This document shows, in pieces, positions 641 through 18,034 of a stretch of 64,000 nucleotides of DNA (within the stretch, counting starts at the first letter, position 1; each line of letters begins with the position of its first letter). The DNA is from Halanaerobacter jeridensis (GTDB lineage Bacteria > Bacillota > Halanaerobiia > Halobacteroidales > Halobacteroidaceae). Position numbers and translations under genes: made by a program. The stretch spans positions 1 through 64,000 of the forward strand of contig NZ_JAFBDQ010000005.1 in NCBI RefSeq assembly GCF_016908315.1. Reading direction: 5' to 3'. Under the pieces are notes generated by a model. The model was not told where the DNA came from and searched no databases. It was given only the letters and a program-made list of their open reading frames with translations.

Positions 641-673
641 TTGACATAAGACGTCTTATATTTCACTTTAAAT

Positions 674-1255: not shown

Positions 1256-1505
1256 ATTATTCCTCCTCGCATAAGTTTATAATTTGAATTTTTTATAAAC
1301 TATACTCATATGTAAGTAATACTATATATAAGTATATTTTCCTGCATATATAGATAACTTTTTTATTTTCTTATTTTTAATAATAACAAAAATATTAATG
1401 AATTTACAGTTAAAATTATATTTTAAAAATAAAATTTTTATTAGAACCATTAATAAAAATATTCAAAACTACATAAAAAACAAAACTTCTAAAATAGGAT
1501 TTCGG

Positions 1506-1641
1506 ATAACGTCCCTGCGATTCGCGACGTCTCGCTACTGCTCCTATACTTTGCCTATTCTCCTAAATTTCATAAGTCAGTGCTTAACCCTGCACTATCC
1601 TCTAGACCTAGATGTCGCTAATCGCATGTTATATGATGGAG
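1506..1641. repeat. attC-like structured repeat, copy 1
   Basis: ATAACGTCCCTGCGATTCGCGACGTCT...AGATGTCGCTAATCGCATGTTAT. Ends are inverted repeats. The variable stem segment TGCGATT/AATCGCA is compensatory relative to other copies. Confidence 0.65.
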
Positions 1642-2526
1642 CGACCCGGAACCACAAAGATAAAATTCTGCTTTTGCTATTATCTTAGCTAAAAATCATT
1701 TCTTACGCATCACAAAGCAGTTCTATTCCTAGCCCAAAACTATTTACCTGAGGGAAAGGGGGCGAAACTTCTATCTTCCTAATAAGTGAATCTTTTCTCT
1801 CAATTATGTAATTCTTGCTAATATGTATAAACCCTTCATAAAATAATCCAATTTTCAAAAAGATAAAAATGGGTTTTCAACTTTCACATTCAAAATGAAA
1901 TTAAGGAGTTAGCTAATACAATTTTGCCATGCTATTCCAAGTTTTTTATCGTCTATCACAATGCTCTTTACTAACAAATTAAAAAGCTCTCCATTTAGCC
2001 TAACTCCTGTCCAGCACCGCACTGGTTTTCCTAACGAAAAGACTAGCCTAATAATTCCTAATCAAGGATAAAGAAAGGTTTTCTTCTGCCCCCTTTCCCT
2101 TTTCCAATTTTCTCTGCAAGATAGAAGTTGACTACATCAATCTAGCCATGCTATACCACAGATTATTTAATAACTCTTATGCTCTTTATTCTGCATTGAA
2201 AATTTATAAGTAGTCACACTTCTATCCTAAGAATAATCCAAATAAATAAACTTGCACAATGATAAAGAGGTTAGGAAATGTTATAAAAATATTGCTGAAG
2301 CTTTTTTTGAATTGAATCTTTTACCTGAGGTTTTAATGAAAGATTTTTAACCCTAATTTGTTTTCTTTTTAAATAAGTAACTAAAAAAGCTCTATTATTT
2401 TCCCTAATTTGCTATTAAAAATCTTAAACCTATAAAAAAATCACTATTTCCTAACCTTCCCTCGAAAATAGTGATCTCTTACTGGTTGGATTCTATAACT
2501 GAAAATCAATATCTTAGCTCTTTCAT

Positions 2527-2653
2527 ATAACGTCCCGCAGCTTCGCGACGTCCCATCAATGCTCTATAACCTAATCTAATGCAACCTTAATTTCATAAGT
2601 CAGTCCTAACCTCATTTATACTCTACAATTGGATGTCGCTAAGCTGCTGTTAT
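2527..2653. repeat. attC-like structured repeat, copy 2 (divergent centre)
   Basis: ATAACGTCCCGCAGCTTCGCGACGTCC...GGATGTCGCTAAGCTGCTGTTAT. Stem GCAGCTT/AAGCTGC and GTCC/GGAT co-vary. Central loop shares 'atttcataagtcagt' with copies 1, 3, 4 and 5. Confidence 0.65.
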
Positions 2654-2679
2654 GCGAAGTGCTAAATCTCAGATAACAA

Positions 2680-4140
2680 CTATATATCACTTGAAAAATA
2701 ATTATCAATGATTTTCCGTAATTTCTTTACTCCCTTCTCTTTGGCTTTATTTCGAATTTCTTCTTTGGAAAAATAATTTATTTGATATTTATTAGTGCTT
2801 TGAGCGCGTTCTTTCAAATAATCTTCTGCTTCTTTTTCAAAACCACCAGTAGACCATAACTCAAAAATGAGCTCTTTATTTCTATGTTCATCTTCTTGAA
2901 AAGTCCAACTTCTTATTTTAGGAATATTATCTGTCACCCATTTTTTAGCAAACCCCTTTCCTATTGGGGCTTTCTTTCCCTTGCATTCAACAATCCTTAA
3001 TCTATCGGGATTATCATAAGCAAGAACATCAATTTCTCTTCTTTCCCCACTATCTTTATCAAGAACTACCTCATTGATTTTAATATATATAGATGATTGA
3101 GAATAATAATATCCTACAGCCAATTCAAAAAGTGCTCCTCTTAAATTAATAGACGCTCCTCTTAAATCAGATAATTTATCAAATAAATCAAAATATTTAT
3201 CAGGATTTTTACTAATAACTGCAGAAGCATTTTCGATTACATTTACTAATGACTTCAATACTTCAGTATATTGGTTATCAAATAATTCATTAACAAATCC
3301 AATAAATATTCCTCGAGATTTAAGCAACTGAAAAGCTTCCTTCTCTAAATCTTCTACTATAATAATAGGGATAAAAGAAGAAACATTATGATTCTGTTTG
3401 ATAATATCAATTTTATTTAAAAAATATTCAACATGCTCTTCTAATACTTCTTTTCCCAGTAAAATATCTGCCACAATAAATCCTGGTGAATCTTCATTTC
3501 TTAAATTAAGAATATAAGATGGAGCTGTAAAACCCCACTGAAATTTATAAAATTCCGCATTATTAGATAACTTTTCTGCATCATTATAAGAAGTGAAATT
3601 TATTTTTTTCGCCCAATCTTCAAAATTAGAAATAGTTAGTTCTTTTGCTAACTCAATTGCTTTAAATCTGGTATGAGTTGAACTAACTTCTATTAATGAA
3701 TTCAACTGATATATATCATCAGTATATTCAACTAAAACATCTAATTGTAGCAAATCATCAATAATAGAGCTAGCCGGTTTATGTCCTTTTAACTTTTTAA
3801 TCGGAGAACAAGTATAACTAGGTAATTGATTCATATCTATAAATCCATCATGAAATAATACTGCTTGTATAAAAAAATGATACGCTTTAGCATGAGTTTC
3901 AAAACTGTTTACTAAATTTTGATAAAAAAGTTGAGTCTTAAAATGATCACTTAAATAAATAAATTGTTGGTTATTATTAAAAGAAATAGTCTTCATTTTT
4001 TTCACAGGAGAATTTGCCCGGGAAATAGCTTTTCTAGCTGCATCATTAGTTATTTCATGTTTTTCTTCTAATTTTTTAGCTAATACTCCGGAAACCATTG
4101 GACCATCATCTTGAAGAATCTTTTCTATACGTGTTGTCAT
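2680..4140 (-). CDS. PD-(D/E)xK nuclease-domain protein with N-terminal wHTH-like region (candidate defence cassette)
   Basis: 486 aa. C-terminal ...EIDVLAYD...RIVECKGKK... fits the D...(D/E)xK restriction-endonuclease-fold motif. Single-gene cassette between repeat copies 3 and 2. Confidence 0.5.
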   Translation of the reverse strand: MTTRIEKILQDDGPMVSGVLAKKLEEKHEITNDAARKAISRANSPVKKMKTISFNNNQQFIYLSDHFKTQLFYQNLVNSFETHAKAYHFFIQAVLFHDGFIDMNQLPSYTCSPIKKLKGHKPASSIIDDLLQLDVLVEYTDDIYQLNSLIEVSSTHTRFKAIELAKELTISNFEDWAKKINFTSYNDAEKLSNNAEFYKFQWGFTAPSYILNLRNEDSPGFIVADILLGKEVLEEHVEYFLNKIDIIKQNHNVSSFIPIIIVEDLEKEAFQLLKSRGIFIGFVNELFDNQYTEVLKSLVNVIENASAVISKNPDKYFDLFDKLSDLRGASINLRGALFELAVGYYYSQSSIYIKINEVVLDKDSGERREIDVLAYDNPDRLRIVECKGKKAPIGKGFAKKWVTDNIPKIRSWTFQEDEHRNKELIFELWSTGGFEKEAEDYLKERAQSTNKYQINYFSKEEIRNKAKEKGVKKLRKIIDNYFSSDI

Positions 4141-4320
4141 TTTATGTCACACCTCACTATTTATAAATAAACAATCAATCAAGCGATCAATTAATTTTTT
4201 TAGTTTTTCAATACCGACAATTCAATAGTTCATAGAGCTGGAAAAAAATACAATGTCACACTTTCCTTTTCAAACTAAAAAATTGTCACTAAAATATGTA
4301 ACTAAGATTTAGCATTTCGC

Positions 4321-4449
4321 ATAACGTCCCTGGGCTTCGCGACGTCTAGGCACTGCTCCTATACTTTTGCCTATGCTCCTAAATTTCATAAGTCAGTGCT
4401 GCAACCCTGCCATATCCTCTGTGCCTAGATGTCGCTAAGCCCATGTTAT
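4321..4449. repeat. attC-like structured repeat, copy 3
   Basis: ATAACGTCCCTGGGCTTCGCGACGTCTAGG...CCTAGATGTCGCTAAGCCCATGTTAT. Confidence 0.65.
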
Positions 4450-4489
4450 CTGACGTAGCCATTGTCGAATAAAAACTACTGTACTTACA

Positions 4490-6280
4490 TCAAAAATTTT
4501 GGTTATAATTAAGATTAGGTAAGGCAATTAAACAACTTGCTTTTTTATGATATCCATAGCGATTAAGCCCCATATTAGCAAATAAAAACACATCCTTCTT
4601 GGCTCTGGTAATCCCAACATAAAAAATGCTAAGCACTTCTTCAAATTCTTCTCTTAAAGAAGACAAAAACTGGAATTTACAACATTTATCAAACTCTTCC
4701 TTCCCTTGTTTAGCACTACACAACTTGCAAAGTCCTTTTGAAGTAGGAAATGAGTATGCTGTAACTCTAGGAATGTATACATAATCCCATTCTAATCCTT
4801 TGGCACCATGTATTGTAGTTATTGTTATCCTTTCATCAATTTCATTCATTAAATGCTTTAAAGATTCATTTTCTAACACAAAAGAAATCTTTTCAAACTT
4901 TTTATTTTTTGATATATTTTCTGCTTTAGTTTTTTGAAACAATTTTTTTAATAACCTTAACAAGGAATTATATATATACATTGTATCATCTTCATATATA
5001 TCTTCAGTAAGCAATTCCTCCATTCTATCAACAACTCTACTTAGTACACGTTTTGCAATAGATTGATTGATACCACTTTCTTCCAAAAACACATCTAAAG
5101 CTTTCTCATGAAAAGCTACATATTCTCTGTCAGTATCATTGAATAATCCATTAAAATAGGAAATAGATTGTTCTTCTAATTTTTCAATTACCTCATTAGT
5201 ACAATAACTAGCTCGACACAAAATAGATACATCATCAGAATCACTAATCTTATCTTTAATATGTTCTACAATAAACTCGGCTTCTTTATGATTGCTCTTA
5301 AAAAATTTAAAATTCATTTCAGCTTCTTTATCAAAAGAATCCATCTCACTATAATTTAAAAAGATACTACGAATATAACTGTCTAATTTTTTCATCTTTT
5401 CATTATCATCAAATCTATGATTTGTTTTGAATCTCATTTCTTCCATATTAAATTCCTCAGCCATATGGTCAAACAAATCAGGAATAGCTCCAATAAAGCC
5501 ATAAATTTTCTGAATTTTATCTCCCATTAAAATAATTTCGTTTTCTCCCATTAATTTTGTAAGCAATCTATATGATAAATAATTAGTATCTTGAAATTCA
5601 TCAACAATAATCATTTTATAATATTGCTGATAAAAATTTCTAATTGATTTCTTATTTAATAAATAATAGGAAAAAAGCAATAATCCATTAAATGTAATAA
5701 CTTCATTAGGGATTAATATTTCGTTTAAAATCTCAAAATAATTGCTTTCTAACTTTTCAACATTATCAATATTTTCTTTTTCAAACCCATTAAAATTTTT
5801 AATACATTTGTCATACTCTGATAAAATGTCCATTTCCGAAGATGATAGATAATCCTTTAGCACTGCTGAATAATCGGATACTATTCTAAAAGAATCCATA
5901 GCCCCCAAATTTTTATTTAATAAATATCCATGTTTTTTTAACAAAATTCTTGCTAAATTATGATAATTTGCTACATCAAGTTTCTTGGATAAATCAACAT
6001 TTTCATCATCTAATAATTCAGGTAATAATTCATTAGTATCTTTTTTAATTTTATTAGCTGCATTTACGCTAAATGTAAGGGCTAATATTTTTTTATGATG
6101 TATTGTCGGATCTGTAACTATTTTGTAAGCAATTTTACTAATCATTGTTTTGGTTTTCCCATATCCAGCTGGAGCAGTTACAATTATTCTTTGTTTTTGA
6201 CTGAAAATAAAATCAAGTTGCTCTTCATCTTTTCCATGAATATCCTCAATTGATTTAGAAATAGCTTTTTTATTCTTCAT
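4490..6280 (-). CDS. gajB: Gabija GajB, UvrD/PcrA/Rep-like SF1 helicase
   Basis: 596 aa. Walker A TAPAGYGKTKT, motif II MIIVDEFQDTN, motif V/VI TTIHGAKGLEWDYVYIP. Overlaps upstream gajA by 11 nt. Confidence 0.75.
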   Translation of the reverse strand: MKNKKAISKSIEDIHGKDEEQLDFIFSQKQRIIVTAPAGYGKTKTMISKIAYKIVTDPTIHHKKILALTFSVNAANKIKKDTNELLPELLDDENVDLSKKLDVANYHNLARILLKKHGYLLNKNLGAMDSFRIVSDYSAVLKDYLSSSEMDILSEYDKCIKNFNGFEKENIDNVEKLESNYFEILNEILIPNEVITFNGLLLFSYYLLNKKSIRNFYQQYYKMIIVDEFQDTNYLSYRLLTKLMGENEIILMGDKIQKIYGFIGAIPDLFDHMAEEFNMEEMRFKTNHRFDDNEKMKKLDSYIRSIFLNYSEMDSFDKEAEMNFKFFKSNHKEAEFIVEHIKDKISDSDDVSILCRASYCTNEVIEKLEEQSISYFNGLFNDTDREYVAFHEKALDVFLEESGINQSIAKRVLSRVVDRMEELLTEDIYEDDTMYIYNSLLRLLKKLFQKTKAENISKNKKFEKISFVLENESLKHLMNEIDERITITTIHGAKGLEWDYVYIPRVTAYSFPTSKGLCKLCSAKQGKEEFDKCCKFQFLSSLREEFEEVLSIFYVGITRAKKDVFLFANMGLNRYGYHKKASCLIALPNLNYNQNF

Positions 6281-7997
6281 TATCTTCTACTCCATTCATT
6301 AATTCTTCTATAATATCTTTAAAAACTTCAGGCACATTAGTAACATATTTTGCTAAAAGAGAACCATTTAAAGCATTTTTTTTATTCCTTAATTGTTTTA
6401 TTTCTTCTTCTTGATAATTTAGCATAATTCTATTTTTAACTTCCTCAGGAACCTCATATTCTTCAGGAGCTTCTATAAAAAGTCTGGGACTAAATTCTTC
6501 CATCTCCTTTTTTAAATAATTTATAAAAGGAGTAATTTTATCTGCTTCCTTTTGATAAAGCAAATAATCATTAAAATCAAAACTATTATATATTTCTGCT
6601 TCAAAATCTATTTCATTTGTGAAAAATATTCCATCTTCATTTTTATATTTTTCTTCTTGATCTTTATCAATTATAGCTATAGCTCTAATATCATATGCAT
6701 CATAAAGTTTCATACATCTAAGAACACTACCAGCCCCATCAAGTTTTATAATTCCAATACTTTCTTCATCAATATCATATCCTATTCTTTCAATAAGTAC
6801 TGGTAAAGCTCCGAATTCTGTATCACCTTCTACAAGAACTACAGCTTTACTAAACATAGCTTCTTTAATATACATAAAACTTCTTATTAAGTGTTTATGA
6901 GTTTTATCATTAAAATCTATATTTCTACCACACTTTACATTAACTTTATCATTAACCTTATATAATCTAGTAATTTGTTTATAGTTATTTAATAATATAT
7001 TAGGAGAATGTGTAACAACAAACACTTGTCCAATCAAACCATCTATTTCAAATAATTCTTCGAGAAGTTTGATAAAGTCTTCATTCTTATTATCAATAAT
7101 TCTTTTTATACCTTTAATTAATGCTCTTTGTCTATATGGATGTTGGTGTATTTCAGGTTCATCTAAAGCAATTACAATTGGTAAATATCTATTTCCCTCA
7201 TCATCATTAATTAAAATATTATTAAATTTTTCTTCTTTCTTATTAGTTTTTAATTTTATTAACAAATCTAAAATATATAAAAATATATTAAATGAATATT
7301 GTAAGCCATCACCAAGTTCATTTAAACTTTTACCTGTATTGTCTCCTACCTCTAAAATTCGACTAACAATATTCTGCTCATCATCATCCACAAATGCTTC
7401 AATTACTTCTCCTTTTAACCCATTTATTTTATATATTTTTTTATTTAAATCATCAACAATTTCATTAACATCACTAATATTAATTAAATCTAAATTTTCT
7501 ATATCTCTTTCCTCCAAAATGTTTTCAACTAAGTAATTTAAAACTTTTCCAGTTCCAGTGTTTTTTGAAAAATCTATTTCTTTGCTAGGATTCCTTAATG
7601 ACGAATAATAAATAAAATTGATTTTTTTAATAGTTATTGGATTTATATATGTATCTGCCGGAGATGCATGTTTATATTCAATTCGACTATAAATATCTTC
7701 TTGAGTTGCTATAATAGTTAAACTATATTCATCATCAATATCAAAATTATTTTCAAAAAAACCCAATTCATCTTTATTGTAACTTATAGTGAATTTAACA
7801 GATATCTCCTTCTTTGTATCATCAAAATGTTCTTCATAGAATTTACCCTTACGTAATAAACAATTAAGCAACTCCATTACATTAGTTTTACCAACATTAT
7901 TTTCTCCAACTAAAAAATTAATTTCCTCATCAAATTTAAAATTTAGTCCGCTTAAATTCTTGAAATTTTTTACTTCTTTTATTTCACTTACAAACAT
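6270..7997 (-). CDS. gajA: Gabija GajA, OLD-family ATPase with C-terminal Toprim nuclease
   Basis: 575 aa. ABC-type Walker A LVGENNVGKTNVMELL, D-loop/Walker B VIALDEPEIHQHP, and Toprim AVVLVEGDTEFGALPVL. Class-2 OLD gene immediately upstream of a UvrD-like helicase equals Gabija architecture. Confidence 0.8.
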   Translation of the reverse strand: MFVSEIKEVKNFKNLSGLNFKFDEEINFLVGENNVGKTNVMELLNCLLRKGKFYEEHFDDTKKEISVKFTISYNKDELGFFENNFDIDDEYSLTIIATQEDIYSRIEYKHASPADTYINPITIKKINFIYYSSLRNPSKEIDFSKNTGTGKVLNYLVENILEERDIENLDLINISDVNEIVDDLNKKIYKINGLKGEVIEAFVDDDEQNIVSRILEVGDNTGKSLNELGDGLQYSFNIFLYILDLLIKLKTNKKEEKFNNILINDDEGNRYLPIVIALDEPEIHQHPYRQRALIKGIKRIIDNKNEDFIKLLEELFEIDGLIGQVFVVTHSPNILLNNYKQITRLYKVNDKVNVKCGRNIDFNDKTHKHLIRSFMYIKEAMFSKAVVLVEGDTEFGALPVLIERIGYDIDEESIGIIKLDGAGSVLRCMKLYDAYDIRAIAIIDKDQEEKYKNEDGIFFTNEIDFEAEIYNSFDFNDYLLYQKEADKITPFINYLKKEMEEFSPRLFIEAPEEYEVPEEVKNRIMLNYQEEEIKQLRNKKNALNGSLLAKYVTNVPEVFKDIIEELMNGVEDNEE

Positions 7998-8132
7998 TTT
8001 TTTTGCCCCCGTTTCAATTTAAGTAATTAATCTTCTAATTTAAATAAAATTAGTTCATCGATTAAAATCAAGAAAAATTATATTTGATCTTAATCTCTTT
8101 GGATAACCTCTTTTTCAAAATGGCTATGTCAG

Positions 8133-8259
8133 ATAACGTCCCTGGGGTTCGCGACGTCTCGGGACTGCTCCTCTATTCTGCTCATCATCCTAAATTTCAT
8201 AAGTCAGTGCTACAACCCTGCCCTATCCTCTTACCTAGATGTCGCTAAGCTCATGTTAT
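8133..8259. repeat. attC-like structured repeat, copy 4
   Basis: ATAACGTCCCTGGGGTTCGCGACGTCT...AGATGTCGCTAAGCTCATGTTAT. Confidence 0.65.
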
Positions 8260-8425
8260 GTGATGTAGTTAGCAAAAGATATTTTCTATATTCTCCAAAA
8301 CCTATGCAAACACTTCTAAACTATGCTAAACCTATTCTACTCACCTTTGCTAATGAGACTTTTCTTTCACAATCCTTCCCAAACAGCTCTAATTAGAGTT
8401 CTCTTACAACTATAATTCTATAACT

Positions 8426-8671
8426 TTAAAAAAAGAATAAACCGAAAGAGATAGAGTAGATATCCTTCCCTAAAATGGTTTCTAAATGTGTTTTTAACTT
8501 CACTATACTCAAAAATTTGCCTCTAAACCTGAGCATTTTCGCCGAAAAATTATACCAACGCCCAAAATATAGCCTAGGCATCGCTACTGGACTAACTTCA
8601 AACAAATATACTTCCACATAACTTATATAAGCCTTAACTCTATATTTCTTTTCCTTAATATAAAAAAGCAT
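8426..8671 (-). CDS. small hypothetical ORF in the short cassette between repeat copies 4 and 5
   Basis: 81-aa ORF with a weak RBS. The cassette may instead be non-coding. Confidence 0.2.
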   Translation of the reverse strand: MLFYIKEKKYRVKAYISYVEVYLFEVSPVAMPRLYFGRWYNFSAKMLRFRGKFLSIVKLKTHLETILGKDIYSISFGLFFF

Positions 8672-8753
8672 CTACTCTATCTCTTGACCGGTTATAGAAT
8701 TCTGCAGCATTTTCTATTCTAATACAAACAAACCCATTTGCTAACTATGTCAC

Positions 8754-8882
8754 ATAACGTCCCTGGGCTTCGCGACGTCTCGGGACTGCTCCTATACTTT
8801 TGCTTATCCTCATAAATTTCATAAGTCAGTGCTGCAACCCTGCCCTATCCTCTATACCTAGATGTCGCTAAGCCCATGTTAT
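8754..8882. repeat. attC-like structured repeat, copy 5
   Basis: ATAACGTCCCTGGGCTTCGCGACGTCT...AGATGTCGCTAAGCCCATGTTAT. Nearly identical to copy 3. Confidence 0.65.
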
Positions 8883-8923
8883 CCGACGCCCGGCTTCTAT
8901 AAAAAATATATCCCTCTTTTAAC

Positions 8924-9781
8924 CTAGTAACTTTTTAATATATCTAAATATTCACTTTTTGTTTCATTATCATATAAACCCTTCGCTTCATTTAGAGTTT
9001 CTATAGCCCAGTCTACATATTTTTGATTTACTTTTTTACTATTTTCTATTTTTTCTATAAATCTTTCTATTTTATTTCTCAATTTATTGTTTACTGATTT
9101 TAATTTTTCTTCCAATTGTTCATTCTCTTCTGCTAGTTCTTCATTCTCTTCTGCTAGTTCTTCATTCTCTTGCTCTAATTGTTCTTCAATTTCTTTTAAC
9201 ATTTCTAATCTTTGTTTTAACCGTTGTGTTTCCTTCTTTTCTTGTTGTGTTTCCTTCTTTTCTTGTTGTGTTTCCTTCTTTTCTTGTTGTGTTTCCTTCT
9301 TTTCTTGTTGTAATTTCTTATCAGACTGCTCAACTGCCTCATCTAATGCACTTAACTCTTCATCACTCCATTCAGTACTTTCCTTACTACTCTCACCTTC
9401 ATTTAATATTTCTTTTATTTTGCTTTTAACCCAACTAGGAGCTTCTATAAAATCTTTTCTCAATCTTTTATTCTCTGATTTCAACAACTCTTTATAAGCT
9501 AAATCTAAATTAGAAAGATTATCTTTAGTCAATATATCTATTTCAATTAAATTTTCTGCGAATTCTCCTGGTTTCATAAATTTATCTTCTAATTTGCTTA
9601 TTTCTTCTAATTCGTCATATAATTTAGTTTTAGCCTTATTAGTACTTAATTCAGCTTGTTTTAGTTTCTCTTCTGTTAAACCATAATCCTCATTTAACTT
9701 AGTAGTTACATCATCTGCTAAAACATTCACTGTCAAAACCAATAGCAATACAATCAATAATAAAACACTTAACTTCTTCAT
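8924..9781 (-). CDS. secreted coiled-coil protein with tandem heptad-like repeats
   Basis: Signal peptide MKKLSVLLLIVLLLVLTVNVLA. QQEKKET x4 encoded by 21-bp tandem repeats at 9226-9310, and ENEELAEENEELAEENEQLEE. Ends with TAG. Confidence 0.6.
   Translation of the reverse strand: MKKLSVLLLIVLLLVLTVNVLADDVTTKLNEDYGLTEEKLKQAELSTNKAKTKLYDELEEISKLEDKFMKPGEFAENLIEIDILTKDNLSNLDLAYKELLKSENKRLRKDFIEAPSWVKSKIKEILNEGESSKESTEWSDEELSALDEAVEQSDKKLQQEKKETQQEKKETQQEKKETQQEKKETQRLKQRLEMLKEIEEQLEQENEELAEENEELAEENEQLEEKLKSVNNKLRNKIERFIEKIENSKKVNQKYVDWAIETLNEAKGLYDNETKSEYLDILKSY
9226..9310. repeat. 21-bp tandem repeat (x4) inside the coiled-coil protein gene
   Basis: tgtgtttccttcttttcttgt repeated four times in a row. 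Confidence 0.85.
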
Positions 9782-9864
9782 AATCTGCCTCCCCTAAATT
9801 ATGGTTTTTAATGTTTTTAATATGTATTTCTTTCAATAAAAATAGCAGCTAAGCCGGGTTTCGG

Positions 9865-9990
9865 ATAACGTCCCTAGGGTTCGCGACGTCTAGCTAAACC
9901 CTCCTATAACTTGTCCATCCTCTAAAACTCAATATTCAATTCCTAACCTTCCCTAACCTCTCAACCTAGATGTCGCTAACCCTATGTTAG
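9865..9990. repeat. attC-like structured repeat, copy 6 (different central region)
   Basis: ATAACGTCCCTAGGGTTCGCGACGTCTAG...CTAGATGTCGCTAACCCTATGTTAG. Stem TAGGGTT/AACCCTA. Confidence 0.65.
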
Positions 9991-10014
9991 ACGATGTTTG
10001 CTTGATAAAAATCA

Positions 10015-11046
10015 TTACCTTCTCTCTATTTCTTCAATTATTAATTTTGGGAATTTATATTCAATTACAGCAATAGCTTCTTTTAAAAGCGGATAAGAAA
10101 AATCTCCTTTTGAACTAGTAATCATTGACATCCAATGAGTTGGATAATATCGAACTAACATACCAATCGCATATGAAATAATGTAAATAGTTAATAAAGA
10201 AGAAAAATTTAAATTATCAGCTAAAGGGGCAACAGCAAATATATTATTTTTTCTATCATTTTTTACAAACGGAACTCTATTATAAAACTCTTCATTAGAA
10301 GAATGAATTATTCTAAAAGATATATTTTCTAAATTACCTGCAAAATTATGTTTTTCCTTCTTTCTCGTTTTAATGTCTTTTGGTAAACCAAAGTCATCTC
10401 TAACTAATTCCTTATTAGGTAACCCAATACTAGTTTCTAACACTGCAATATCTGTTTGTTCAGATAAACAAAAAACAATTGCATTATAACATTTAGAATA
10501 ATCATCAAAAGTATTCTCATATATATTTTGTAATTCCGGAATCCTCGCTAATATTTCTTTAATAGTAATTAAATTATTACTATCTTCTTTACCCCCATAT
10601 TGTTTTATTTTAGTTCGATTTGGATATGGAGCTATATATATTGAACTTCTCTCAATATTTTCTGTAACCTCCCATAACTTAGAAAATGTGCCAGAAGTAA
10701 TCTCAACATTCAAATTAGGTACTTCTTCTATTCCATCTGAAAGTTTTTGGGTCCAATTTTTCACTCTTAATCCATGAGATGGTTTAAGGCTAGTTACTCT
10801 TGCAAAAGGATCTAAAAATAAAATTAATCCACGACAAAATGCAACTACTCCGTAATAAAACAATAGAGGAGATACAACATTATCAGCCTGTTTTGCACTG
10901 GAAAAATATTCTCTTCCTTGAGTAATATGAGAAACTATTTCCTCTGCTTTTCCAGCCGAAAGTTCTCTATCATGCTTCTCTTCATAAAATTTTGAAACTA
11001 AATCTTTGCTTTCATACAAAGATATCTTAGACCAAACATTTTTCAT
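10015..11046 (-). CDS. YaaC-like family protein
   Basis: 343 aa. Pattern W..IS.YES.DLV.KF...H...QGREYF..A.....V.PLLFYYG.V and C-terminal PLLKEAI.VIE.KFPKLII match my recollection of B. subtilis YaaC-family proteins. Confidence 0.5.
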   Translation of the reverse strand: MKNVWSKISLYESKDLVSKFYEEKHDRELSAGKAEEIVSHITQGREYFSSAKQADNVVSPLLFYYGVVAFCRGLILFLDPFARVTSLKPSHGLRVKNWTQKLSDGIEEVPNLNVEITSGTFSKLWEVTENIERSSIYIAPYPNRTKIKQYGGKEDSNNLITIKEILARIPELQNIYENTFDDYSKCYNAIVFCLSEQTDIAVLETSIGLPNKELVRDDFGLPKDIKTRKKEKHNFAGNLENISFRIIHSSNEEFYNRVPFVKNDRKNNIFAVAPLADNLNFSSLLTIYIISYAIGMLVRYYPTHWMSMITSSKGDFSYPLLKEAIAVIEYKFPKLIIEEIERR

Positions 11047-11069
11047 TATTTACCTCCCTTTTTCCCTTG

Positions 11070-11528
11070 TCACAAATTTACTTTTTCTAACTGTGTAGGC
11101 CAAGCTCCTTGACCATTTCCTCCTTTAAAATAAACTCTATAATTTTTTCCTATAGAAGAAACAACATGTTTAGTAATATACTTCTTTTCTTCACCATCAA
11201 TTTCAACTTTACTTTTCTTTTTAACTTTGTCTCCAGGCTTTAAATTTAATTCTTCAATTGCTTGCTTATTATTTTCTTTTAATTTATCCTCAATTTTTGC
11301 TGAGGCAACTCTCAACGAATTGTTTTTAAGATCTAAACCCAATTCTTCTCCAAATTCAATTTGTTTTTCAGTAGACTCATTAAATTCCATATTAGGATCA
11401 ATTGCTGGTTCAACTGCATCATAAATCCTTGCACTTGCTACATTACGAGTATCATTAGAAATATCAACTTCTAATTTAATTGCTATATTCTTTTGAAATG
11501 GTGTTGGTTTTTTATGAACATCATTCAC
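11070..11528 (-). CDS. hypothetical protein, co-cassette partner of the YaaC-like gene
   Basis: 152 aa with internal duplication (RNVASARIYDAVE / LRVASAKIEDKLKE). Same cassette as 10015-11046. Confidence 0.45.
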   Translation of the reverse strand: MNDVHKKPTPFQKNIAIKLEVDISNDTRNVASARIYDAVEPAIDPNMEFNESTEKQIEFGEELGLDLKNNSLRVASAKIEDKLKENNKQAIEELNLKPGDKVKKKSKVEIDGEEKKYITKHVVSSIGKNYRVYFKGGNGQGAWPTQLEKVNL

Positions 11529-11577
11529 AAATAAATTTCCTCCTTTAAAAAATATAATATAACAAAAGCAAATGTCG

Positions 11578-11705
11578 TCTAACGTCCCTGGGGTTCGCGA
11601 CGTCTAGCTCAACCCTCTTATAACTTGTCCTTCCTATAAAACTTTCATATGTAATCTCTACCTTCACCCATCCTCCTAGCCTAGATGTCGCTAACCCCAT
11701 GTTAT
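11578..11705. repeat. attC-like structured repeat, copy 7 (same subfamily as copy 6)
   Basis: CTAACGTCCCTGGGGTTCGCGACGTCTAG...CTAGATGTCGCTAACCCCATGTTAT. Stem TGGGGTT/AACCCCA. Confidence 0.65.
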
Positions 11706-11955
11706 GTGATGCTTCTGATCGGTTAATAAAAAATAATCCCCAATAAAATTAAAACCCTCATTAAAATTTAGCATAATAATAAATACTCATATCAAACAAC
11801 TATAATTCGAATTATTTTATACTAATATTATATTCAACCTTACTTTTACTCCTCAATTTGCAACTCAACTCCTGGTATATAAACATTAATCCTTTCTATT
11901 TTAAATCTAATTCTATTTTCTAATTCTTTTTTCACAATATCTTGAATTGTTTGCC

Positions 11956-12648
11956 CTACTTTATAAACTTTTTTCTAGAATCAACAATTATATTTAAGTT
12001 AACAGTAATTCTTTCACCTTGTCTTTCAATCTCAACACCTTTAGATAAATCTTTTAAACCTAATATATCCTTAAGCGCATTCAAAAAACTACCTCCATTA
12101 GTATCTACTACCCCATCTATCTCTCTAACAACTATTCCCACTAACTCTTCTATCTTGTTATATTTTTCATCTTCAATACTAATTGAATTCAATTCAATAT
12201 TATTTTCATTTCCTAATTTATATTTAGGAAATAATCTATTACTTGGATCATCTGGTTCAGTATAATCAAATTTTTTTATATTAACTTTAACCTTGTTAAC
12301 TTCAATTCCTGTTTTATGTTTCAATCTATATTTTACAGTATCTCTTATTTCTTGGGCTACTATATTACTTTGCATTTCATCTTTTATTATTGCATTAATT
12401 TCAATAATAAATCCGTCATCAATTATTCTATATTCTATTCCCTTAGATAAATTATTTATTCCTAATAATACACGAATATCATCAAAAAAACTTCCCTGCG
12501 TATCAATTACTCCATCTATTTCTCTAACAATAACCCCAATTAAAATTTTTATTACTTCTTTAGAAATCCTAATCTTTCCTTTGTTATTTTTTTGTTCAAT
12601 ATCAATATCCTTAGATTTTTTCATAATTGTTTTGCTCTCCTTTTGCAA
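11956..12648 (-). CDS. Asp23/Gls24-family protein with two Asp23 domains; 3' end apparently frameshifted
   Basis: Two copies of VIKILIGVIVREIDGV.DT...LSKGIE. The conserved C-terminal continuation VYKVGQTIQDIVKKELENRIRFKIERINVYIPGVELQIEE* is in another frame at 11846-11958, after an A6 run. Confidence 0.65.
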   Translation of the reverse strand: MQKESKTIMKKSKDIDIEQKNNKGKIRISKEVIKILIGVIVREIDGVIDTQGSFFDDIRVLLGINNLSKGIEYRIIDDGFIIEINAIIKDEMQSNIVAQEIRDTVKYRLKHKTGIEVNKVKVNIKKFDYTEPDDPSNRLFPKYKLGNENNIELNSISIEDEKYNKIEELVGIVVREIDGVVDTNGGSFLNALKDILGLKDLSKGVEIERQGERITVNLNIIVDSRKKFIK

Positions 12649-12691
12649 TATAGATAAAAAGTTTTATAAGAAGTTTCACATAACTTATTTT

Positions 12692-12753
12692 TTAACGACA
12701 CAAAAATCATAATTTATAGTTGTTCCTTATATTTACGATGATTGTGTCGTTAA
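12692..12753 (-). promoter_or_regulatory. perfect hairpin immediately 3' of the recombinase gene (terminator and/or attI-like site)
   Basis: TTAACGACACAAAAATCAT...ATGATTGTGTCGTTAA. It contains GTCG/CGAC cores that resemble the conserved GCGACGTC/GATGTCGC boxes of the attC-like repeats. Confidence 0.35.
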
Positions 12754-12760
12754 AATCAGA

Positions 12761-13801
12761 TTAGTTGATTAAATTATCTAACGGACTTTCTATGTTTGCA
12801 ATATCTCTTTTGCTGACATGAGTATATATTTCAGTAGTAGTAGAACTCTTATGTCCTAATAATTTTTGGATGTATCGTAAATCAGTTCCTTGCTCTAATA
12901 AATGTGTTGCAAAAGAATGTCTTAAAGTATGTACAGAAACATCTTTAGTAATATTAGCTTTTCTACAGGCTTTTTTGAATATTCTTTGTACTGATCTTGT
13001 AGTTAAGTGTTCTCCTTCTTTGCCTCCAGGAAACAACCTCTTTTCGGGTTGATATAATTGATGATACATTTTTATCTGTTTCAGACAAGATTCTGATAAG
13101 ATCGTATAGCGATCTTTTCTCCCCTTCCCTTGATTAATTTTAATTAGCATTCTATCACTATTAATATCATCCATTTTTAGTTTAACAACTTCACTAACCC
13201 TTAATCCAGCAGAATAAACTACATACAAAATTGTTTTATGTTTGGGGTTATCTAGACTATCTAAAATCTTCGCTACTTCTTTTTTACTTAATACTTCCGG
13301 TAACTTTTTTTCTTTTTGTGGTCGTGATAAAACAACTGAAATATCTTTATTATCCAATACTTCCCGGGCCAAGAACTTAATAGCACTAATCCCCTGGTTA
13401 ACAAATGAATGTGATAAATCTTGGTCTAATAAATCCAACAAATAATCCTTAATCTCAGCATCAGTCACTCGTGATAACTTCTTATTAATAAATCGTGCAA
13501 ACTGCCTAATATGACTCATATAAACTTTTTCCGTCTTTTCACTATAACCTTCTAAATTTAACTGATTTTTTAGTTCATTAATTACTAGTTCATTTTCTAA
13601 AGCACTGGAAATTATAATTCTTTCATTAACAAATTTCTCTTTTAACTGTTCTAAAATATCATAATCATAAGGTACTAACCATGCTCTAGCTTTAGGGGCC
13701 CATTCCCGCTTATTAATTTCTTTAATTTTTTTAATTTTTCTTTCCGAATAATCAAATTTAACAGCTAGTTGTCCTTCTAACTTTTCAATTCTTAATGTCA
13801 T
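12761..13801 (-). CDS. tyrosine-type site-specific recombinase (XerD-like core, about 100-aa N-terminal extension); putative cassette-array integrase
   Basis: 346 aa. Box II HTLRHSFATHLLEQGTDLRYIQKLLGHKSSTTTEIYTHV, R at LRVSE, catalytic Y in EIYTHV, C-terminal SPLDNL. Only about 58 aa between KDR and HTLRHS, so no IntI-type additional domain is evident. Confidence 0.85.
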   Translation of the reverse strand: MTLRIEKLEGQLAVKFDYSERKIKKIKEINKREWAPKARAWLVPYDYDILEQLKEKFVNERIIISSALENELVINELKNQLNLEGYSEKTEKVYMSHIRQFARFINKKLSRVTDAEIKDYLLDLLDQDLSHSFVNQGISAIKFLAREVLDNKDISVVLSRPQKEKKLPEVLSKKEVAKILDSLDNPKHKTILYVVYSAGLRVSEVVKLKMDDINSDRMLIKINQGKGRKDRYTILSESCLKQIKMYHQLYQPEKRLFPGGKEGEHLTTRSVQRIFKKACRKANITKDVSVHTLRHSFATHLLEQGTDLRYIQKLLGHKSSTTTEIYTHVSKRDIANIESPLDNLIN

Positions 13802-14037
13802 AAATTAGCTCCTCTCTCGCACGCATAAAATTAAATCTAACAAAAAATAGATTTTATAACATTATAACCAAATTTAAGAGCTAATATACATTAAAATATA
13901 TTTGCAACTAGCTTTTCTTATTATATTATTGATTATATACATTTATAGCATATTCTAGTTATACTTTTATTTTTCTCCACTAAAAAATATTTTCCTGCAC
14001 ATTCATCGTTAAAATCAATTTATTCTACTTATTTTTA

Positions 14038-14073
14038 CAAAAAAATAAAAGCTATCAAAATAATTTTGATAGC
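14038..14073 (-). terminator. Rho-independent terminator
   Basis: gctatcaaaa taa ttttgatagc followed by a T-run on the minus strand. Confidence 0.6.
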
Positions 14074-14154
14074 AAATTAAAGTTTATATTCTTTTTTATC
14101 TATAAACTAGGGCCAACAACAAATAAGTTACTCAATCAAAATTAATATTTATTA

Positions 14155-14820
14155 TTAAACATCATTCTTCTGAACTAATTGATTTAAACCTTCAGCTACA
14201 TCTGCTAATTGCTGAGAAGAAGCTGCAATGTCATCAGACATATGAGTTATTTCTTGTGATACATCCAAAACTTCATCACTATTTTCAGCTAAAGTTTGGG
14301 TGGAATTGTTTATAGCTTCTATTGCTGCATTTAAAGCTAATAAATTAGTCTGTTCTGCTATATTATCAATCAATTTAATTATTTTCCCAACTTCTTCAGA
14401 ATTATGATCAAGCTGATTAATCGTTTTTACTGTTTGACTTACAGAATCAGTAATGTCTTCCATACTGTCAATTGCTTTTTGAACTTTTTTGCTACCCAAC
14501 TGAACTCTCTTATTAGTTTTTTGAGCAAATTCTGCTACTTCGTTAATACTATTAGATATACCGTGTATTTTAAGTGCCATTTTTTCAATCAAAGAAGAAC
14601 TAGTTTCAATTGAGGCATTCCCTTCTTCAGCAGCAGCTGATAATTGTTGACTAGTAGCAGTAACTTCTCCAACTTTTTCTTTTATATTATTAATAATGAT
14701 ATTTAAATTCTGACTTAAATCTAAAGCTTCAGCCTGTTTTTCTTCTGCCAAATTTATTAAATGAATTGATTTATTAATTAACAAAATAGCAACAATTCCA
14801 GTGAAAATAAAAATAACCAT
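14155..14820 (-). pseudogene. methyl-accepting chemotaxis protein remnant (TM plus partial signalling domain)
   Basis: 221 aa: one TM helix then [16 protein letters not shown]...[11 protein letters not shown]. Lacks the HAMP/sensor region and the ARAGE.GRGFAVVA segment. Compare intact MCP at 37424-39019. Confidence 0.5.
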
Positions 14821-14991
14821 AATTAAAATCTAAGTAGTAGGGCCAAACATAGCTAATATAGTATCTGTAATTATATAATATTCAACTAATAATTAGTGGA
14901 ATTAAGGTAATTGAGTTTAAAAATAGATATTGTTTTGTTACTAAGGATACTTGATAAGTTTTTAATTTATTCCCTTTAACTACTAAAAATA

Positions 14992-15780
14992 TTATTCTAT
15001 CATATCTTCTAATGATATTTGCTTATTATGATCTCTTTGTTTACCTATACTAACTTCTTGATATTGAATTGCTTCTTCTGGACACCACTGTATACAGGCA
15101 AAACACAATTCACAATCGTCTCCCCAGACTGGACTATCATCAACTAAACTAATATTACCTCTAGGACAAAGTTCTACGCACTTACCGCATAAATTACAAT
15201 CTTCAGTTGACCAAAAATCAGCTGCGGCTTCTTTGAATTGCTTAATTGCACCTTTATGGATCATTCCCCCCAAAAAATTAGCTAATTTTGAGCTAGTTTC
15301 TAATTTGTGCTGCTGCTTATTCTCAACTACCTCAATAATCTCTGATAATCGTTCTGCAAATGGAAGAGGCGGTTCTCCTGCAATATTCCTCATTATTTTC
15401 ATAAAAATATTTTCCTCTAAAAAAGTATAACTAGCCTCTCTTACTGCAAATCCCGCTTTTAAATCTCCTCCACTTTTATTCAACAACTCTTTTAGCTGAA
15501 TCAAAGTATTTCCTGGTGTTCCTCCACAAGTAGCTACAGCAAAAGTATACTCTTCCCCACTTAGTTTAATCTGTTTCACAAAATCTGCAACAATCCTCGG
15601 CAGACCCCAAGCATAAACTGGAAAGACAAAACCTATTCTTTCTGCTTCTAAACTATCACAATTATTCATAGCTTCAGAAATAGCTACTAACTCAACATTA
15701 TCAAGTTTCTCTACTATCTGACGAGCAGCAAATAAAGAATTCCCTGTTCCGGAAAAATAAAATATTTTGTTTAGCATCAT
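14992..15780 (-). CDS. flavodoxin-like / 4Fe-4S ferredoxin-domain protein
   Basis: N-terminal flavodoxin-like fold (IFYFSGTGNS). C-terminal CGKCVELCP and CELCFACIQWCP cysteine clusters. Confidence 0.6.
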   Translation of the reverse strand: MMLNKIFYFSGTGNSLFAARQIVEKLDNVELVAISEAMNNCDSLEAERIGFVFPVYAWGLPRIVADFVKQIKLSGEEYTFAVATCGGTPGNTLIQLKELLNKSGGDLKAGFAVREASYTFLEENIFMKIMRNIAGEPPLPFAERLSEIIEVVENKQQHKLETSSKLANFLGGMIHKGAIKQFKEAAADFWSTEDCNLCGKCVELCPRGNISLVDDSPVWGDDCELCFACIQWCPEEAIQYQEVSIGKQRDHNKQISLEDMIE

Positions 15781-15811
15781 TGATCACCTTTATTCAATTA
15801 ATTTTACTACC

Positions 15812-16630
15812 TTATTTACTTTTTTCTCTTCCTTCCTGATCATAAACAATAGCTGTCTTATCAAACTCATACAACAAACCATCACCAGCAAAGGTTCTAT
15901 GTTCTTTTCCACTAATTTCACCAGCTAAAACTCCTTCTATTCCTATTATCAATTCATCAACTATATCTGCTTCTAAAGGGGTCCTTCTGTGCGCTGGTAA
16001 AACCATATCAAATTCATCTATTCTACTTTTTATCTTCTTGAGTCCGGCTAAAAATGTATTTAATGACTTTGAACTTCCTAACTGCAACCAAATGTGCCCC
16101 TCTACTATTGCATCTCCAGTAAATAATGCTTTATCTTCTTTATCAAGCAAACAAATACTACCTGCAGAATGACTAGGCAGGGCAATTACTTCAATATTTT
16201 TATCTCCCAAGTCAAATTGATGACCATCTTTTATGAAAATTAAATTATTATAATCTGCTTCAAGCCATCCCTCTACATCAAATTGTGGGGGATAAGGTCC
16301 CCGTTGTGCTTTCTCTAAAGCCCACTCCCTACTTTCTCGTTCAAAACATCCTTTTAATAATTTTGCATCAGCTTTAGTGATGTGAACATTATCAAATTGA
16401 TAAGCTCCACCTACATGGTCAGGATGACCGTGAGTATTAACTACTACTATTGGCAGTTCTGTCAATTCAGAAATTAATTCTTTTAAATCTCCTATACCCC
16501 AGCCAGTATCAATTAATAAAGCTCGCTTACTACCTCTAACTAAATAAATAGTATTATCACCATTATCATCAATTGCTAAAATATCATCTGTTATTTCTTG
16601 TACTTCAAACCACTGCTCTTTCGTCTTCAT
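15812..16630 (-). CDS. MBL-fold metallo-hydrolase
   Basis: VNTHGHPDHVGG metal-binding motif. Confidence 0.75.
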   Translation of the reverse strand: MKTKEQWFEVQEITDDILAIDDNGDNTIYLVRGSKRALLIDTGWGIGDLKELISELTELPIVVVNTHGHPDHVGGAYQFDNVHITKADAKLLKGCFERESREWALEKAQRGPYPPQFDVEGWLEADYNNLIFIKDGHQFDLGDKNIEVIALPSHSAGSICLLDKEDKALFTGDAIVEGHIWLQLGSSKSLNTFLAGLKKIKSRIDEFDMVLPAHRRTPLEADIVDELIIGIEGVLAGEISGKEHRTFAGDGLLYEFDKTAIVYDQEGREKSK

Positions 16631-16689
16631 TGAAAAAAACCTCCACTAATTTAATTACTTTTAATCCAAGCAACAATATATTCCACTGA

Positions 16690-16960
16690 ATTAATTTATT
16701 CTCCCTTACTAATATTTTATTCTTTGTTCTGGGCCAACAACTTACGAAATCCTCTTTCATCAAAATACGTTACTGCTTCAAAATTAGCCGGATGATTATA
16801 GGCACCTTCCTCAAAATATTCTGTCCTTCCCCTCTTGCTCCACTAAATATTGATTAACTGACCTTGATACAGTAGTCTTTCCTGCACTAGGCAGCCCTTC
16901 TACTAAAATTAAATTTTCTTCCCCTAACACTTCACCTCTCAGTTTTATCACATAAAACTC
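16690..16960 (-). pseudogene. frameshifted remnant of a small P-loop NTPase/kinase
   Basis: rc translation VIKLRGEVLGEENLILVEGLPSAGKTTVSRSVNQYLVEQEGKDRIF*, then in another frame EEGAYNHPANFEAVTYFDERGFRKLLAQNKE*. Confidence 0.3.
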
Positions 16961-17029
16961 TAATTACTATAATATTTCTCTGTAAAACTTAATTCTCATT
17001 CAATTGATTCAACTAAAACTGCACACCAG

Positions 17030-17260
17030 TTAATCAAATTCCGCAAAGTTCTGCGCAAAAACAAAATTTAGTATCGGCTCCCCTTCTTGAAACTCCAACA
17101 TTTCTAATTTTAATTCTTTTCCAGCTAGTTCTTGTCTCGTCTTAATTATTTCTTTTTCTGGGGGAGTATTACTCATTCCTAACAACAAAATAGCTATTAT
17201 TAACATCAATCCTAACAACAATATCTTATTTTTGTTTAACATTTTATTCCCTCCAGTCAT
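17030..17260 (-). CDS. small membrane protein
   Basis: 76 aa with one hydrophobic helix. Overlaps the TetR gene end by 4 nt. Confidence 0.35.
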   Translation of the reverse strand: MTGGNKMLNKNKILLLGLMLIIAILLLGMSNTPPEKEIIKTRQELAGKELKLEMLEFQEGEPILNFVFAQNFAEFD

Positions 17261-17893: not shown

Positions 17894-18034
17894 CCCATAA
17901 TCTATCTCCTTTCATGAAAGTGTAATTAAATAAACTAATAGTTTACTTAATTACATTTTACTCTTTTTTTAATTATTATCAAGAAAAAAAGAACATATCT
18001 AATCTCAGACATGTTCTTAATTACATATTAATTA

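Follow-up and report, generated by a model that had tools for sequence, protein, structure and literature searches.

The integron integrase IntI is defined by an additional domain of about 35-40 aa near patch III, I2, which is held to be necessary for recombination at attC sites. In surveys of integrons, recombinases that lie near attC without the IntI domain "are not IntI" (PMC4889954; PMC9024848). No complete integron was reported from the Firmicutes in the earlier of these surveys (PMC4889954), and the later one gives a single complete example, in Limnochorda, together with a few clusters of attC sites lacking integron integrases (CALINs) (PMC9024848). The closest homologues of IntI, which lack its helical insertion, have been joined with IntI in an 'Integron-like' subgroup, the insertion being described as "specific to IntI only", and the elements IS91 and IS3 were the source of such insertion-less homologues (Smyshlyaev, Barabas and Bateman, 10.1101/542381). 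The stretch of DNA considered here, referred to throughout as the window, comprises positions 1 to 64,000 of the forward strand of contig NZ_JAFBDQ010000005.1 of Halanaerobacter jeridensis (NCBI RefSeq assembly GCF_016908315.1), and it contains a gene for a tyrosine recombinase followed by an array of genes set between long imperfect palindromes (Table 1). The best explanation, to which a probability of about 0.82 is assigned, is that the product of this gene serves as site-specific integrase to a sedentary, integron-like element of the chromosome, and this product will be called the integrase in what follows.

The integrase is 100% identical to an H. jeridensis protein named "site-specific tyrosine recombinase/integron integrase", which is the name given by NCBI to the profile NF040815; other annotations of the same protein are XerD or simply "site-specific tyrosine recombinase". 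It is a three-part protein consisting of an N-terminal HARP-like domain, a SAM-like core-binding domain (Pfam Phage_int_SAM_4, residues 75-151) and a catalytic domain (Phage_integrase, residues 170-331), and the IntI additional domain is absent. Residues R201, K226, H291, R294, H317 and Y326 make up the complete tyrosine-recombinase set, are invariant in 112 members of the family, and align in MAFFT with the R-K-H-R-H-Y residues of IntI1, the IntI1 reference being 100% identical to annotated intI1 genes. An earlier, sequence-only reading of this DNA had noted that only about 58 residues separate the GKGRKDR segment from HTLRHS, against about 100 in IntI1, and had taken the IntI-specific domain to be missing. 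Both observations are borne out: the interval from GKGRKDR (residues 225-231) to HTLRHS (291) is 59 residues, compared with 100 in IntI1, and several comparisons agree that the insertion is absent. VchIntIA (PDB 2a3v) aligns by phmmer in two pieces (query residues 82-244 with 14-178, and 264-343 with 240-319), so that from phmmer and the solved structures some 42 of its residues have no counterpart in the integrase, and the alignment to XerA (4a8e) is colinear. In the MAFFT alignment 41 residues of IntI1, including QHTHSTDPRS, are missing from the query, from three distant family members and from XerC and XerD. Of the NCBIfam models for integron integrases, TIGR02249 gives 218, short of its cut-off of 265, with the match broken into two stretches, while NF011946 scores 144.7, under its cut-off of 435. 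The AlphaFold model (predicted local distance difference test score, pLDDT, 85.7) has no inserted element where IntI has its extra helices, and its best structural match is VchIntIA, followed by XerA.

Two further features of the protein had been described somewhat differently. The SPLD motif (residues 339-342), previously likened to both IntI and Xer proteins, is among the aligned sequences common to the integrase and IntI1, and is not found in XerC or XerD. The N-terminal extension proposed earlier does exist, but at about 65-72 aa it falls short of the roughly 100 aa suggested, because the SAM-like domain begins near residues 73-75 and residue 11 of IntI1 aligns with residue 69 of the query.

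Downstream of the integrase, at least seven imperfect palindromes of about 125 nt, all in the same orientation, form the boundaries of successive cassettes; no copy beyond the seven was found in the 64-kb window. The repeats have no match in Rfam, and no tRNA was found in the window. The integrase and every cassette open reading frame (ORF) of 60 aa or more in positions 1-12800 lie on the - strand, with the array 3' of the integrase, and the co-orientation of integrase and cassettes reported in the sequence-only reading is thus upheld. Read in the sense of the genes, each site follows the grammar CNTC-nnn-TAAC, a 5-nt spacer, GTTAGCGACATC, about 70 nt, GACGTCGCGAAC, a spacer complementary to the first plus GGAC, and GTTA-nnn-GA[C/A]A, a layout that on sequence is that of the R''-L''...L'-R' boxes of attC.

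The limits of the cassettes are marked by pairing between sites. Between consecutive sites, the 16 nt that follow GTTA in one match the complement of the 16 nt that precede TAAC in the next at 12.35 of 16 positions (n=20), compared with 6.6 of 16 for the two flanks of the same site and 6.4 of 16 for all other flank pairs (n=486). When only variable positions are counted the values are 9.95 of 12 against 4.28 of 12. For the 16-nt flanks on independent metagenome contigs carrying the site, the figures are 11.4 against 6.1. Because adjacent flanks are complementary in this way, a single long R box is re-formed when the two ends of each cassette are brought together, as happens in integrons.

The region that follows the integrase stop codon, up to the first cassette, behaves, from the comparison of loci, as an attI site. 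It carries inverted arms, TTTTAACGACACAA at 12742-12755 and TTGTGTCGTTAAAA at 12690-12703. A metagenomic relative (L009) shares with the window the integrase region and an upstream gene for a protein of metallo-beta-lactamase fold, and this homology runs through the integrase to 77 nt past the stop codon, where it ends at AATAA-GTTA-TGTGA. In other genera the region following the integrase contains two to four motifs of the TTAACGAC type and always ends in GTTA-nnn-GA[C/A]A, and in five loci complementarity links the flank after the GTTA of the putative attI with the one ahead of the first attC-like site. It is this complementarity, together with the end of homology at GTTA, that gives the region its attI-like character.

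The same relative provides evidence that cassettes have moved. Its cassettes are arranged in a different order from those of the window: cassette X, which is fourth in the window, is both first and second in L009, and cassette Y occurs four times there and once in the window. The two L009 copies of X are identical at 497 of 497 nt; one is fused to attI, with the post-integrase sequence ...GTCGTTAATAAATAA before it, the second lies behind an attC-like site, after ...CCCCAGGGAC, and in both the identity starts exactly at GTTA. This looks like the insertion of a cassette at attI, one that must be recent. The duplicated unit comprises the cassette and the site that follows it, nearly identical, which favours the rule known from integrons, in which each ORF precedes an attC of its own. 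There are also copies of a single cassette after which the sites show coordinated spacer differences, and this the model does not explain.

Arrays of the same kind accompany the integrase elsewhere. At all 13 relative loci, which represent every relative whose neighbourhood was readable, the integrase is found with a co-oriented array of attC-like sites, and the common layout is one of housekeeping genes, then the integrase, then small, diverse, co-oriented genes divided by the sites; the upstream neighbourhoods differ from locus to locus. Taxa with such an array include Halanaerobacter, Orenia, Natroniella, Halonatronum, Sporohalobacter, Tindallia, Caldalkalibacillus, Gracilibacter, an Ignavibacteriales metagenome-assembled genome (MAG), two further metagenomic relatives and a Chryseobacterium plasmid. 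The R-box grammar (CNTC-nnn-TAAC, and a purine-rich 4-mer plus GTTA-nnn-GA[C/A]A) is kept in most of the loci, while the L boxes and the centre of the site vary. The site pattern was met on 42 metagenome contigs and on none of the viral contigs searched. In one metagenomic locus (L012, 5402-13236 of JGI Ga0153774_1000435) an inverted site begins 15 nt past the integrase stop codon and takes the place of attI, an arrangement that suggests either an inversion or an integrase gene situated inside the array. The sequence-only proposal that the recombinase serves the cassette array therefore appears well founded, given the attI junction, the complementary cassette ends, the reordered cassettes, the perfect duplicate at attI and the linkage in 13 of 13 loci.

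These results bear directly on whether the enzyme might be a housekeeping dimer resolvase of the XerA/XerC/XerD type that happens to lie beside an unrelated repeat array. Such a role is hinted at by the annotations as XerD or "site-specific tyrosine recombinase", and by the XerA_Arch model NF040815, which scores 227.8, just over its cut-off of 220, with a match confined to residues 77-336. The models for XerC (TIGR02224, 201.1 against a cut-off of 335) and XerD (TIGR02225, 208.3 against 330) both fail, however; the array is linked to the enzyme in all 13 relative loci despite the differing upstream genes; cassettes are joined to a site right after the integrase stop codon; and the protein has an extra, HARP-like domain. 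A dif site of the Bacillus subtilis type was also looked for in the 64-kb window and none was found, which is a weak test. A housekeeping resolvase is, on this evidence, scarcely credible. Searches of the 64-kb window for a second, paralogous recombinase, and of the region upstream of the integrase for a LexA (Cheo) box, gave none.

The descent of the integrase was examined in a neighbour-joining (NJ) tree based on 248 shared columns. Besides 12 members of the family it included IntI1, VchIntIA and a 76%-identical IntI, and among Xer proteins XerC and XerD of E. coli and two XerA structures. VchIntIA and XerA are represented by partial sequences, and the diversity of IntI in the tree is thin, the search for IntI1 homologues having returned only relatives at least 74% identical. 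In 120 of 120 bootstraps the family is monophyletic, IntI is monophyletic, and the two together form one clan without XerA, XerC or XerD; in this small-sample distance tree the family is sister to the three IntI sequences and not nested among them. The family thus groups with IntI and not with XerC and XerD, and it stands apart from the two XerA structures as well, even though the XerA profile passes. The placement agrees with the published 'Integron-like' subgroup (10.1101/542381). The simpler reading, in view of the NJ clan, the common SPLD tail and this published grouping, is that the integrase is non-IntI by definition and not independent of IntI by descent. Of the suggestion that it is an independently evolved, non-IntI cassette integrase, the absence of the IntI domain survives, and the independence is not supported, in view of the same three lines of evidence. 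We infer that the family shares a cassette-recombining ancestor with IntI.

A sister relationship and a common SPLD tail might also be expected of a decayed IntI that has shed its additional domain, next to an array that is a frozen, CALIN-like relic, and the single degenerate site and the one apparently frameshifted cassette gene could be read in the same way. Yet the architecture without the domain and with the HARP-like extension is kept at 49%-87% identity across several phyla, with invariant catalytic residues, close relatives differ in their cassette content, and a 100%-identical cassette duplicate lies at attI, all of which make such decay most improbable. A second possibility arises from published classification. 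Recombinases of IS91 and IS3 elements are placed next to IntI there (10.1101/542381), and genes for Y2 transposases occur within the arrays of L013 and L063, so that the integrase might be the accessory recombinase of an IS91-family rolling-circle element, with the repeats as by-products. Against this, Pfam and PADLOC scans found no IS91 transposase in the window array, most of the arrays examined are likewise without one, and the transposase gene of L013 is itself bounded as a cassette and looks like cargo or a parasite of the array. Because the window array has no such gene, IS91 is better regarded as cargo or guest than as the mechanism, and an accessory role of this kind is very unlikely. 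The L013 cassette (12572-21053, Natroniella sp., CP175562.1) has its own divergent attC-like site with complementary ends, and is present in four copies, three of which follow one another in tandem (period 1627 bp); it may explain the link in databases between 'integron-like' recombinases and IS91. In L063 a small recombinase and a Y2 transposase make up the first cassette.

Covariation within the sites was measured on 25 reconstituted sites from five loci. Standard pairs fill 80.9% of cells, as against 64.2% in shuffles (0 of 500 reach the observed value), and in slid registers 24-43% of cells pair. Double-sided changes in the stems number 196 where 69 are expected; four of the five spacer pairs (22-26 with 65-69) each show 9-12 such changes, and the cassette-end flanks covary too. 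Three positions are never paired, one in the R box (C.A) and two in the L box (A.G and A.C), and these invariant mismatches, like the 4-nt GGAC bulge, are fixed across the set. When the + strand of the window (the "bottom" strand with respect to the genes) is folded, two of the three turn into G.T wobbles and the TAAC:GTTA stem closes. Six of the seven window sites fold better than shuffles, with z scores for sites 1-7 of -4.9, -4.9, -3.6, +0.3, -6.9, -2.8 and -3.8 on the + strand and -3.6, -4.3, -2.7, -0.6, -4.7, -2.2 and -3.3 on the - strand, the + strand giving the stronger z in the same six.

The element proposed here would consist of the integrase, an attI-like site and an array of promoter-proximal cassettes each ending in an attC-like palindrome. 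Cassettes would be excised by recombination between two attC-like sites and re-inserted at attI, the crossover would fall at or beside the GTTA of the R' box, as in integrons, and the orientation would be set by the 4-nt bulge and the three invariant mismatches, which would mark the strand. By analogy with attC, it is moderately likely that the site acts as a folded single strand, in which case the reacting strand is probably the bottom strand, that is, the + strand of the window. Such action fits the covariation of left and right spacers some 100 nt apart, which a duplex mechanism does not require. The + strand has a strongly negative GC skew across the whole window (positions 1-64000), between -0.03 and -0.38, and the - strand carries nearly all of the genes; should the G-rich strand be the leading one, the better-folding + strands of the sites would be on the leading-strand template. 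In Firmicutes the G-rich strand usually has this role, and sites oriented in this way have been reported from sedentary chromosomal integrons.

Several observations weigh against this account. Both strands of the sites fold with similar free energies, site 4 (8134-8258) has a mismatched spacer and no fold (z +0.3 and -0.6), and each half-site pair is also plausible as a double-stranded core site. Promoter-like matches for the cassettes do not exceed the shuffled background. The L012 locus has sites on both sides of the integrase, one of them inverted right after the stop codon. The HARP assignment is below the Pfam threshold for the query itself; and the tree, made by a distance method, has only three sequences for IntI and four for Xer, not all of them complete. 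Finally, the case for recombination is one of sequence comparison throughout, and what that comparison shows is the grammar of the sites, the limits of the cassettes, the GTTA junction, insertion at attI, the shuffling and duplication of cassettes, and the linkage of integrase and array in distant taxa.

The first of these points invite a reading in which the cassettes are the same and no hairpin is involved, exchange being of the double-stranded Xer/Cre type at paired simple sites (R''-spacer-L'' and L'-spacer-R'), as in the Xer-dependent modules that have dif-like sites at their ends. Similar inverted arms (GTTA-n2/3-GAC[A/G]T) do surround a short spacer in each half of the site, in the manner of a classical core site, the top and bottom strands fold with similar energy, and the enzyme is without the IntI domain considered necessary for the recognition of extrahelical bases. 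However, exchange between duplexes would require neither the covariation of spacers over about 100 nt nor that of the flanks; the conserved bulge and the three invariant mismatches, two of them G.T on one strand, look like strand markers; and the right-hand spacer, at 9 nt, is long for the overlap of a two-strand exchange. Double-stranded exchange is accordingly considered unlikely, and the folded site is retained as the working interpretation.

How a fold might be recognised by an enzyme without I2 is suggested by its N-terminal domain. In the AlphaFold model residues 1-64 form a beta-beta-alpha-beta-beta-alpha-beta domain. The Pfam model HARP (PF07443) scores 15.2 bits on the query, under the gathering cut-off of 25, and six of eight N-domains of the family give sub-threshold Pfam HARP matches (E 6.7e-5 to 0.035). 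A profile of the N-domain matches 2849 cluster representatives at E <= 0.001, including SNF2 helicases in which Pfam itself calls HARP, and homology to HARP is thus supported both by profile search and by fold. HARP, UvsW-N and archaeal XPB N-domains bind forked, branched or distorted DNA, and this makes the HARP-like domain a reasonable candidate for recognising the folded site. It might, by analogy, read the structure of the site or the junction of single strand and duplex in place of the I2 domain of IntI, a suggestion that we make tentatively. Two groups of proteins show the domain in other numbers: four tyrosine recombinases of 600-790 aa (P0128, P0135, P0140 and P0166) have three or four tandem HARP-like domains ahead of the SAM-like and catalytic domains, and plasmid homologues from Clostridium estertheticum and C. 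tagluense (H6-H18), about 45% identical and annotated xerA, match only residues 75-346 of the query and have no HARP-like N-domain.

The widest interpretation of these findings, for which we would claim slightly less than even odds, is that the family is a second, ancient integron lineage, widespread in Bacillota and reaching plasmids of Bacteroidota, in which folded sites are recombined without I2 by way of the HARP-like domain. If this were true, the capture of cassettes would be older than the IntI insertion, and Gram-positive bacteria would have been reported as nearly devoid of integrons as a result of defining integrons by that insertion. The arrays in any case have the look of a working cassette platform, with a domain-less sister of IntI, in lineages deemed nearly free of integrons. 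If confirmed, they would widen the host range of integron-type gene capture, with a cargo that includes anti-phage systems such as Gabija; they would offer a natural test of the requirement for I2 in attC recombination, would open the origin of integrons from Xer-like enzymes to experiment, and would supply a new pair of recombinase and site for low-GC Gram-positive hosts. No prior description of the system was found in the full-text literature searched, whose scope left out most subscription journals.

Table 1. Features of the integrase and cassette array in the window, and loci of relatives (identities are to the integrase of the window)
Feature or locus	Position	Strand	Remarks
Integrase gene	12761..13801	-	346 aa plus stop, ATG start, ORF confirmed
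N-terminal HARP/UvsW-N-like domain	13607..13801	-	residues 1-65
Core-binding (SAM-like) domain	13349..13606	-	residues 66-151; Pfam, AlphaFold model
Catalytic domain	12764..13294	-	residues 170-346
Short connector where IntI holds its additional domain of ~40 aa	13010..13072	-	residues 244-264; phmmer, MAFFT, AlphaFold
attI-like site	12681..12760	-	between integrase stop and cassette 1; junction GTTA 12681-12684
Cassette 1	11705..12680	-	tandem Asp23-family gene, apparent frameshift near 3' end
attC-like site 1	11580..11704	-	TAAC...GTTA
Cassette 2	9990..11579	-	152-aa ORF and YaaC-like 343-aa ORF
attC-like site 2	9866..9989	-	
Cassette 3	8882..9865	-	285-aa ORF, function unassigned
attC-like site 3	8755..8881	-	
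Cassette 4 (X)	8259..8754	-	81-aa ORF; 87% identical cassette first and second in L009
attC-like site 4	8134..8258	-	mismatched spacer, poor fold
Cassette 5	4449..8133	-	Gabija: GajA 6270-7997, GajB 4490-6280
attC-like site 5	4322..4448	-	
Cassette 6	2653..4321	-	486-aa ORF, function unassigned
attC-like site 6	2528..2652	-	
Cassette 7 (Y)	1632..2527	-	no - strand ORF of 60 aa or more; four copies in L009
attC-like site 7	1507..1631	-	last visible; next cassette runs toward window start
L009, L010			metagenomic relatives; integrase 87%; at least 9 sites (L009)
L011			MAG; integrase 73%; 1 site
L012			metagenome; integrase 59%; 4 sites, atypical layout
L013			Natroniella; integrase 57%; 6 sites
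L014			Orenia; integrase 58%; 7 sites
L015			Halonatronum; integrase 56%; 1 site
L016			Sporohalobacter; integrase 52%; 2 sites
L017			Tindallia; integrase 50%; sites with same grammar
L018			Caldalkalibacillus (Bacillus-class); integrase 49%; sites with same grammar
L062			Ignavibacteriales MAG; integrase 49%; 6 sites
L063			Gracilibacter; integrase 53%; similar sites, looser
L019			Chryseobacterium plasmid; integrase 42%; ~280-nt repeats with AAC...GTT palindrome, looser

The cargo of the window includes a complete two-gene Gabija anti-phage system (4490-7997), which forms a single cassette between attC-like sites 4 and 5; both genes were called by PADLOC (GajA, E 6e-158; GajB, E 9.7e-179), in agreement with Pfam. 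In the first cassette, the last 35 or so codons of the tandem Asp23-family gene (11845-12648, - strand) lie in another frame after 11956, which points to a possible pseudogene or a sequencing error. The ORF of cassette 3 contains perfect 21-nt tandem repeats, coding for heptads, at 9107-9327. No terminator was found between the integrase and cassette 1. Two features lie elsewhere in the window: a fluoride riboswitch at 53702-53770 on the - strand (Rfam RF01734, 48.7 bits), which is the only Rfam match in the window and is unrelated to the array, and degenerate T-rich direct repeats of 37-65 nt at 25971-26406 and 29494-29530 (of the CTTGTTACT / CACTGATTACT type).

The cargo of the relatives includes Shedu-like (SduA_C), restriction-modification, nSTAND, HEPN and ParE genes. 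In Caldalkalibacillus salinus (L018, 7903-11110) the integrase adjoins smpB, and a ParE toxin-antitoxin pair is oriented opposite to the other cassettes; toxin-antitoxin cassettes in chromosomal integrons are often oppositely oriented. Group II intron reverse transcriptases and an IS110-family transposase are lodged inside arrays (L015, 18215-19471; L063, 15304-16569; L019, 13263-14264 and 15729-17045), and these guests recall those of classical integrons, where group IIC introns target attC and IS1111-attC elements occur.

The system can be compared with several that are already known. Like chromosomal integrons, it has a tyrosine recombinase beside an attI-like site, followed by an array of mostly promoterless, co-oriented cassettes. 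Treponema denticola provides an example of an integron of inverted, or reverse, type. Such an 'inverted integron-integrase group', with intI co-oriented with its cassettes, is established (PMC4889954), so that the co-orientation seen here is not unprecedented; the position of the attI-like site, 3' of the integrase gene, is likewise that of inverted integrons. The sites resemble attC in being imperfect palindromes that contain R''/L''/L'/R' boxes, cores of the type ...AAC / GTT... and unpaired bases that are conserved; the cassette boundary is at GTT with the first bases of R' belonging to the next cassette, and defence systems and toxin-antitoxin genes as cargo, with group II introns and insertion sequence elements in the arrays, complete the likeness. 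In the small tree IntI has its nearest relative in the integrase, which however lacks the I2 additional domain and has the N-terminal HARP-like domain. The R box, unlike that of attC, extends to about 20 bp, and a 4-nt bulge with fixed mismatches replaces the canonical extrahelical G and T. The hosts, too, are different, being Halanaerobiales, Clostridia and Bacilli, groups reported as nearly integron-free (PMC4889954, PMC9024848).

The 'Integron-like' subgroup fits the present family as a set of IntI homologues without the insertion, and the link to IS91 made there is matched by the IS91 transposase genes in L013 and L063; its members are annotated as recombinases of IS91 or IS3, and the text consulted on them describes no cassette array, no attI- or attC-like sites and no HARP-like N-domain (10.1101/542381). 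XerA, XerC and XerD share the fold, the two-domain core and a catalytic domain without insertion, and the XerA model just passes; the integrase differs from all three in its extra N-terminal domain, its SPLD tail and its consistent linkage to an array, the XerC and XerD models fail, and its sites are palindromes of about 125 nt where Xer resolvases act at a 28-bp dif. Residues 1-65 have the same fold as the HARP domain of SMARCAL1 annealing helicases and the N-domains of T4 UvsW and archaeal XPB, which here, unlike in those proteins, is fused to a tyrosine recombinase. Integrases of the Lambda and Tn916 type likewise have an extra N-terminal module ahead of the core-binding domain, and the additional integrase-type TTAACGAC motifs in the attI region add to the resemblance; the N-domain fold here, however, is HARP-like (beta-beta-alpha-beta-beta-alpha-beta), and the system is a cassette array without arm sites flanking a mobile element. 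The present system is one that combines the logic of an integron with a sister enzyme of IntI, an enzyme that fails the defining feature of IntI and has a different accessory domain.

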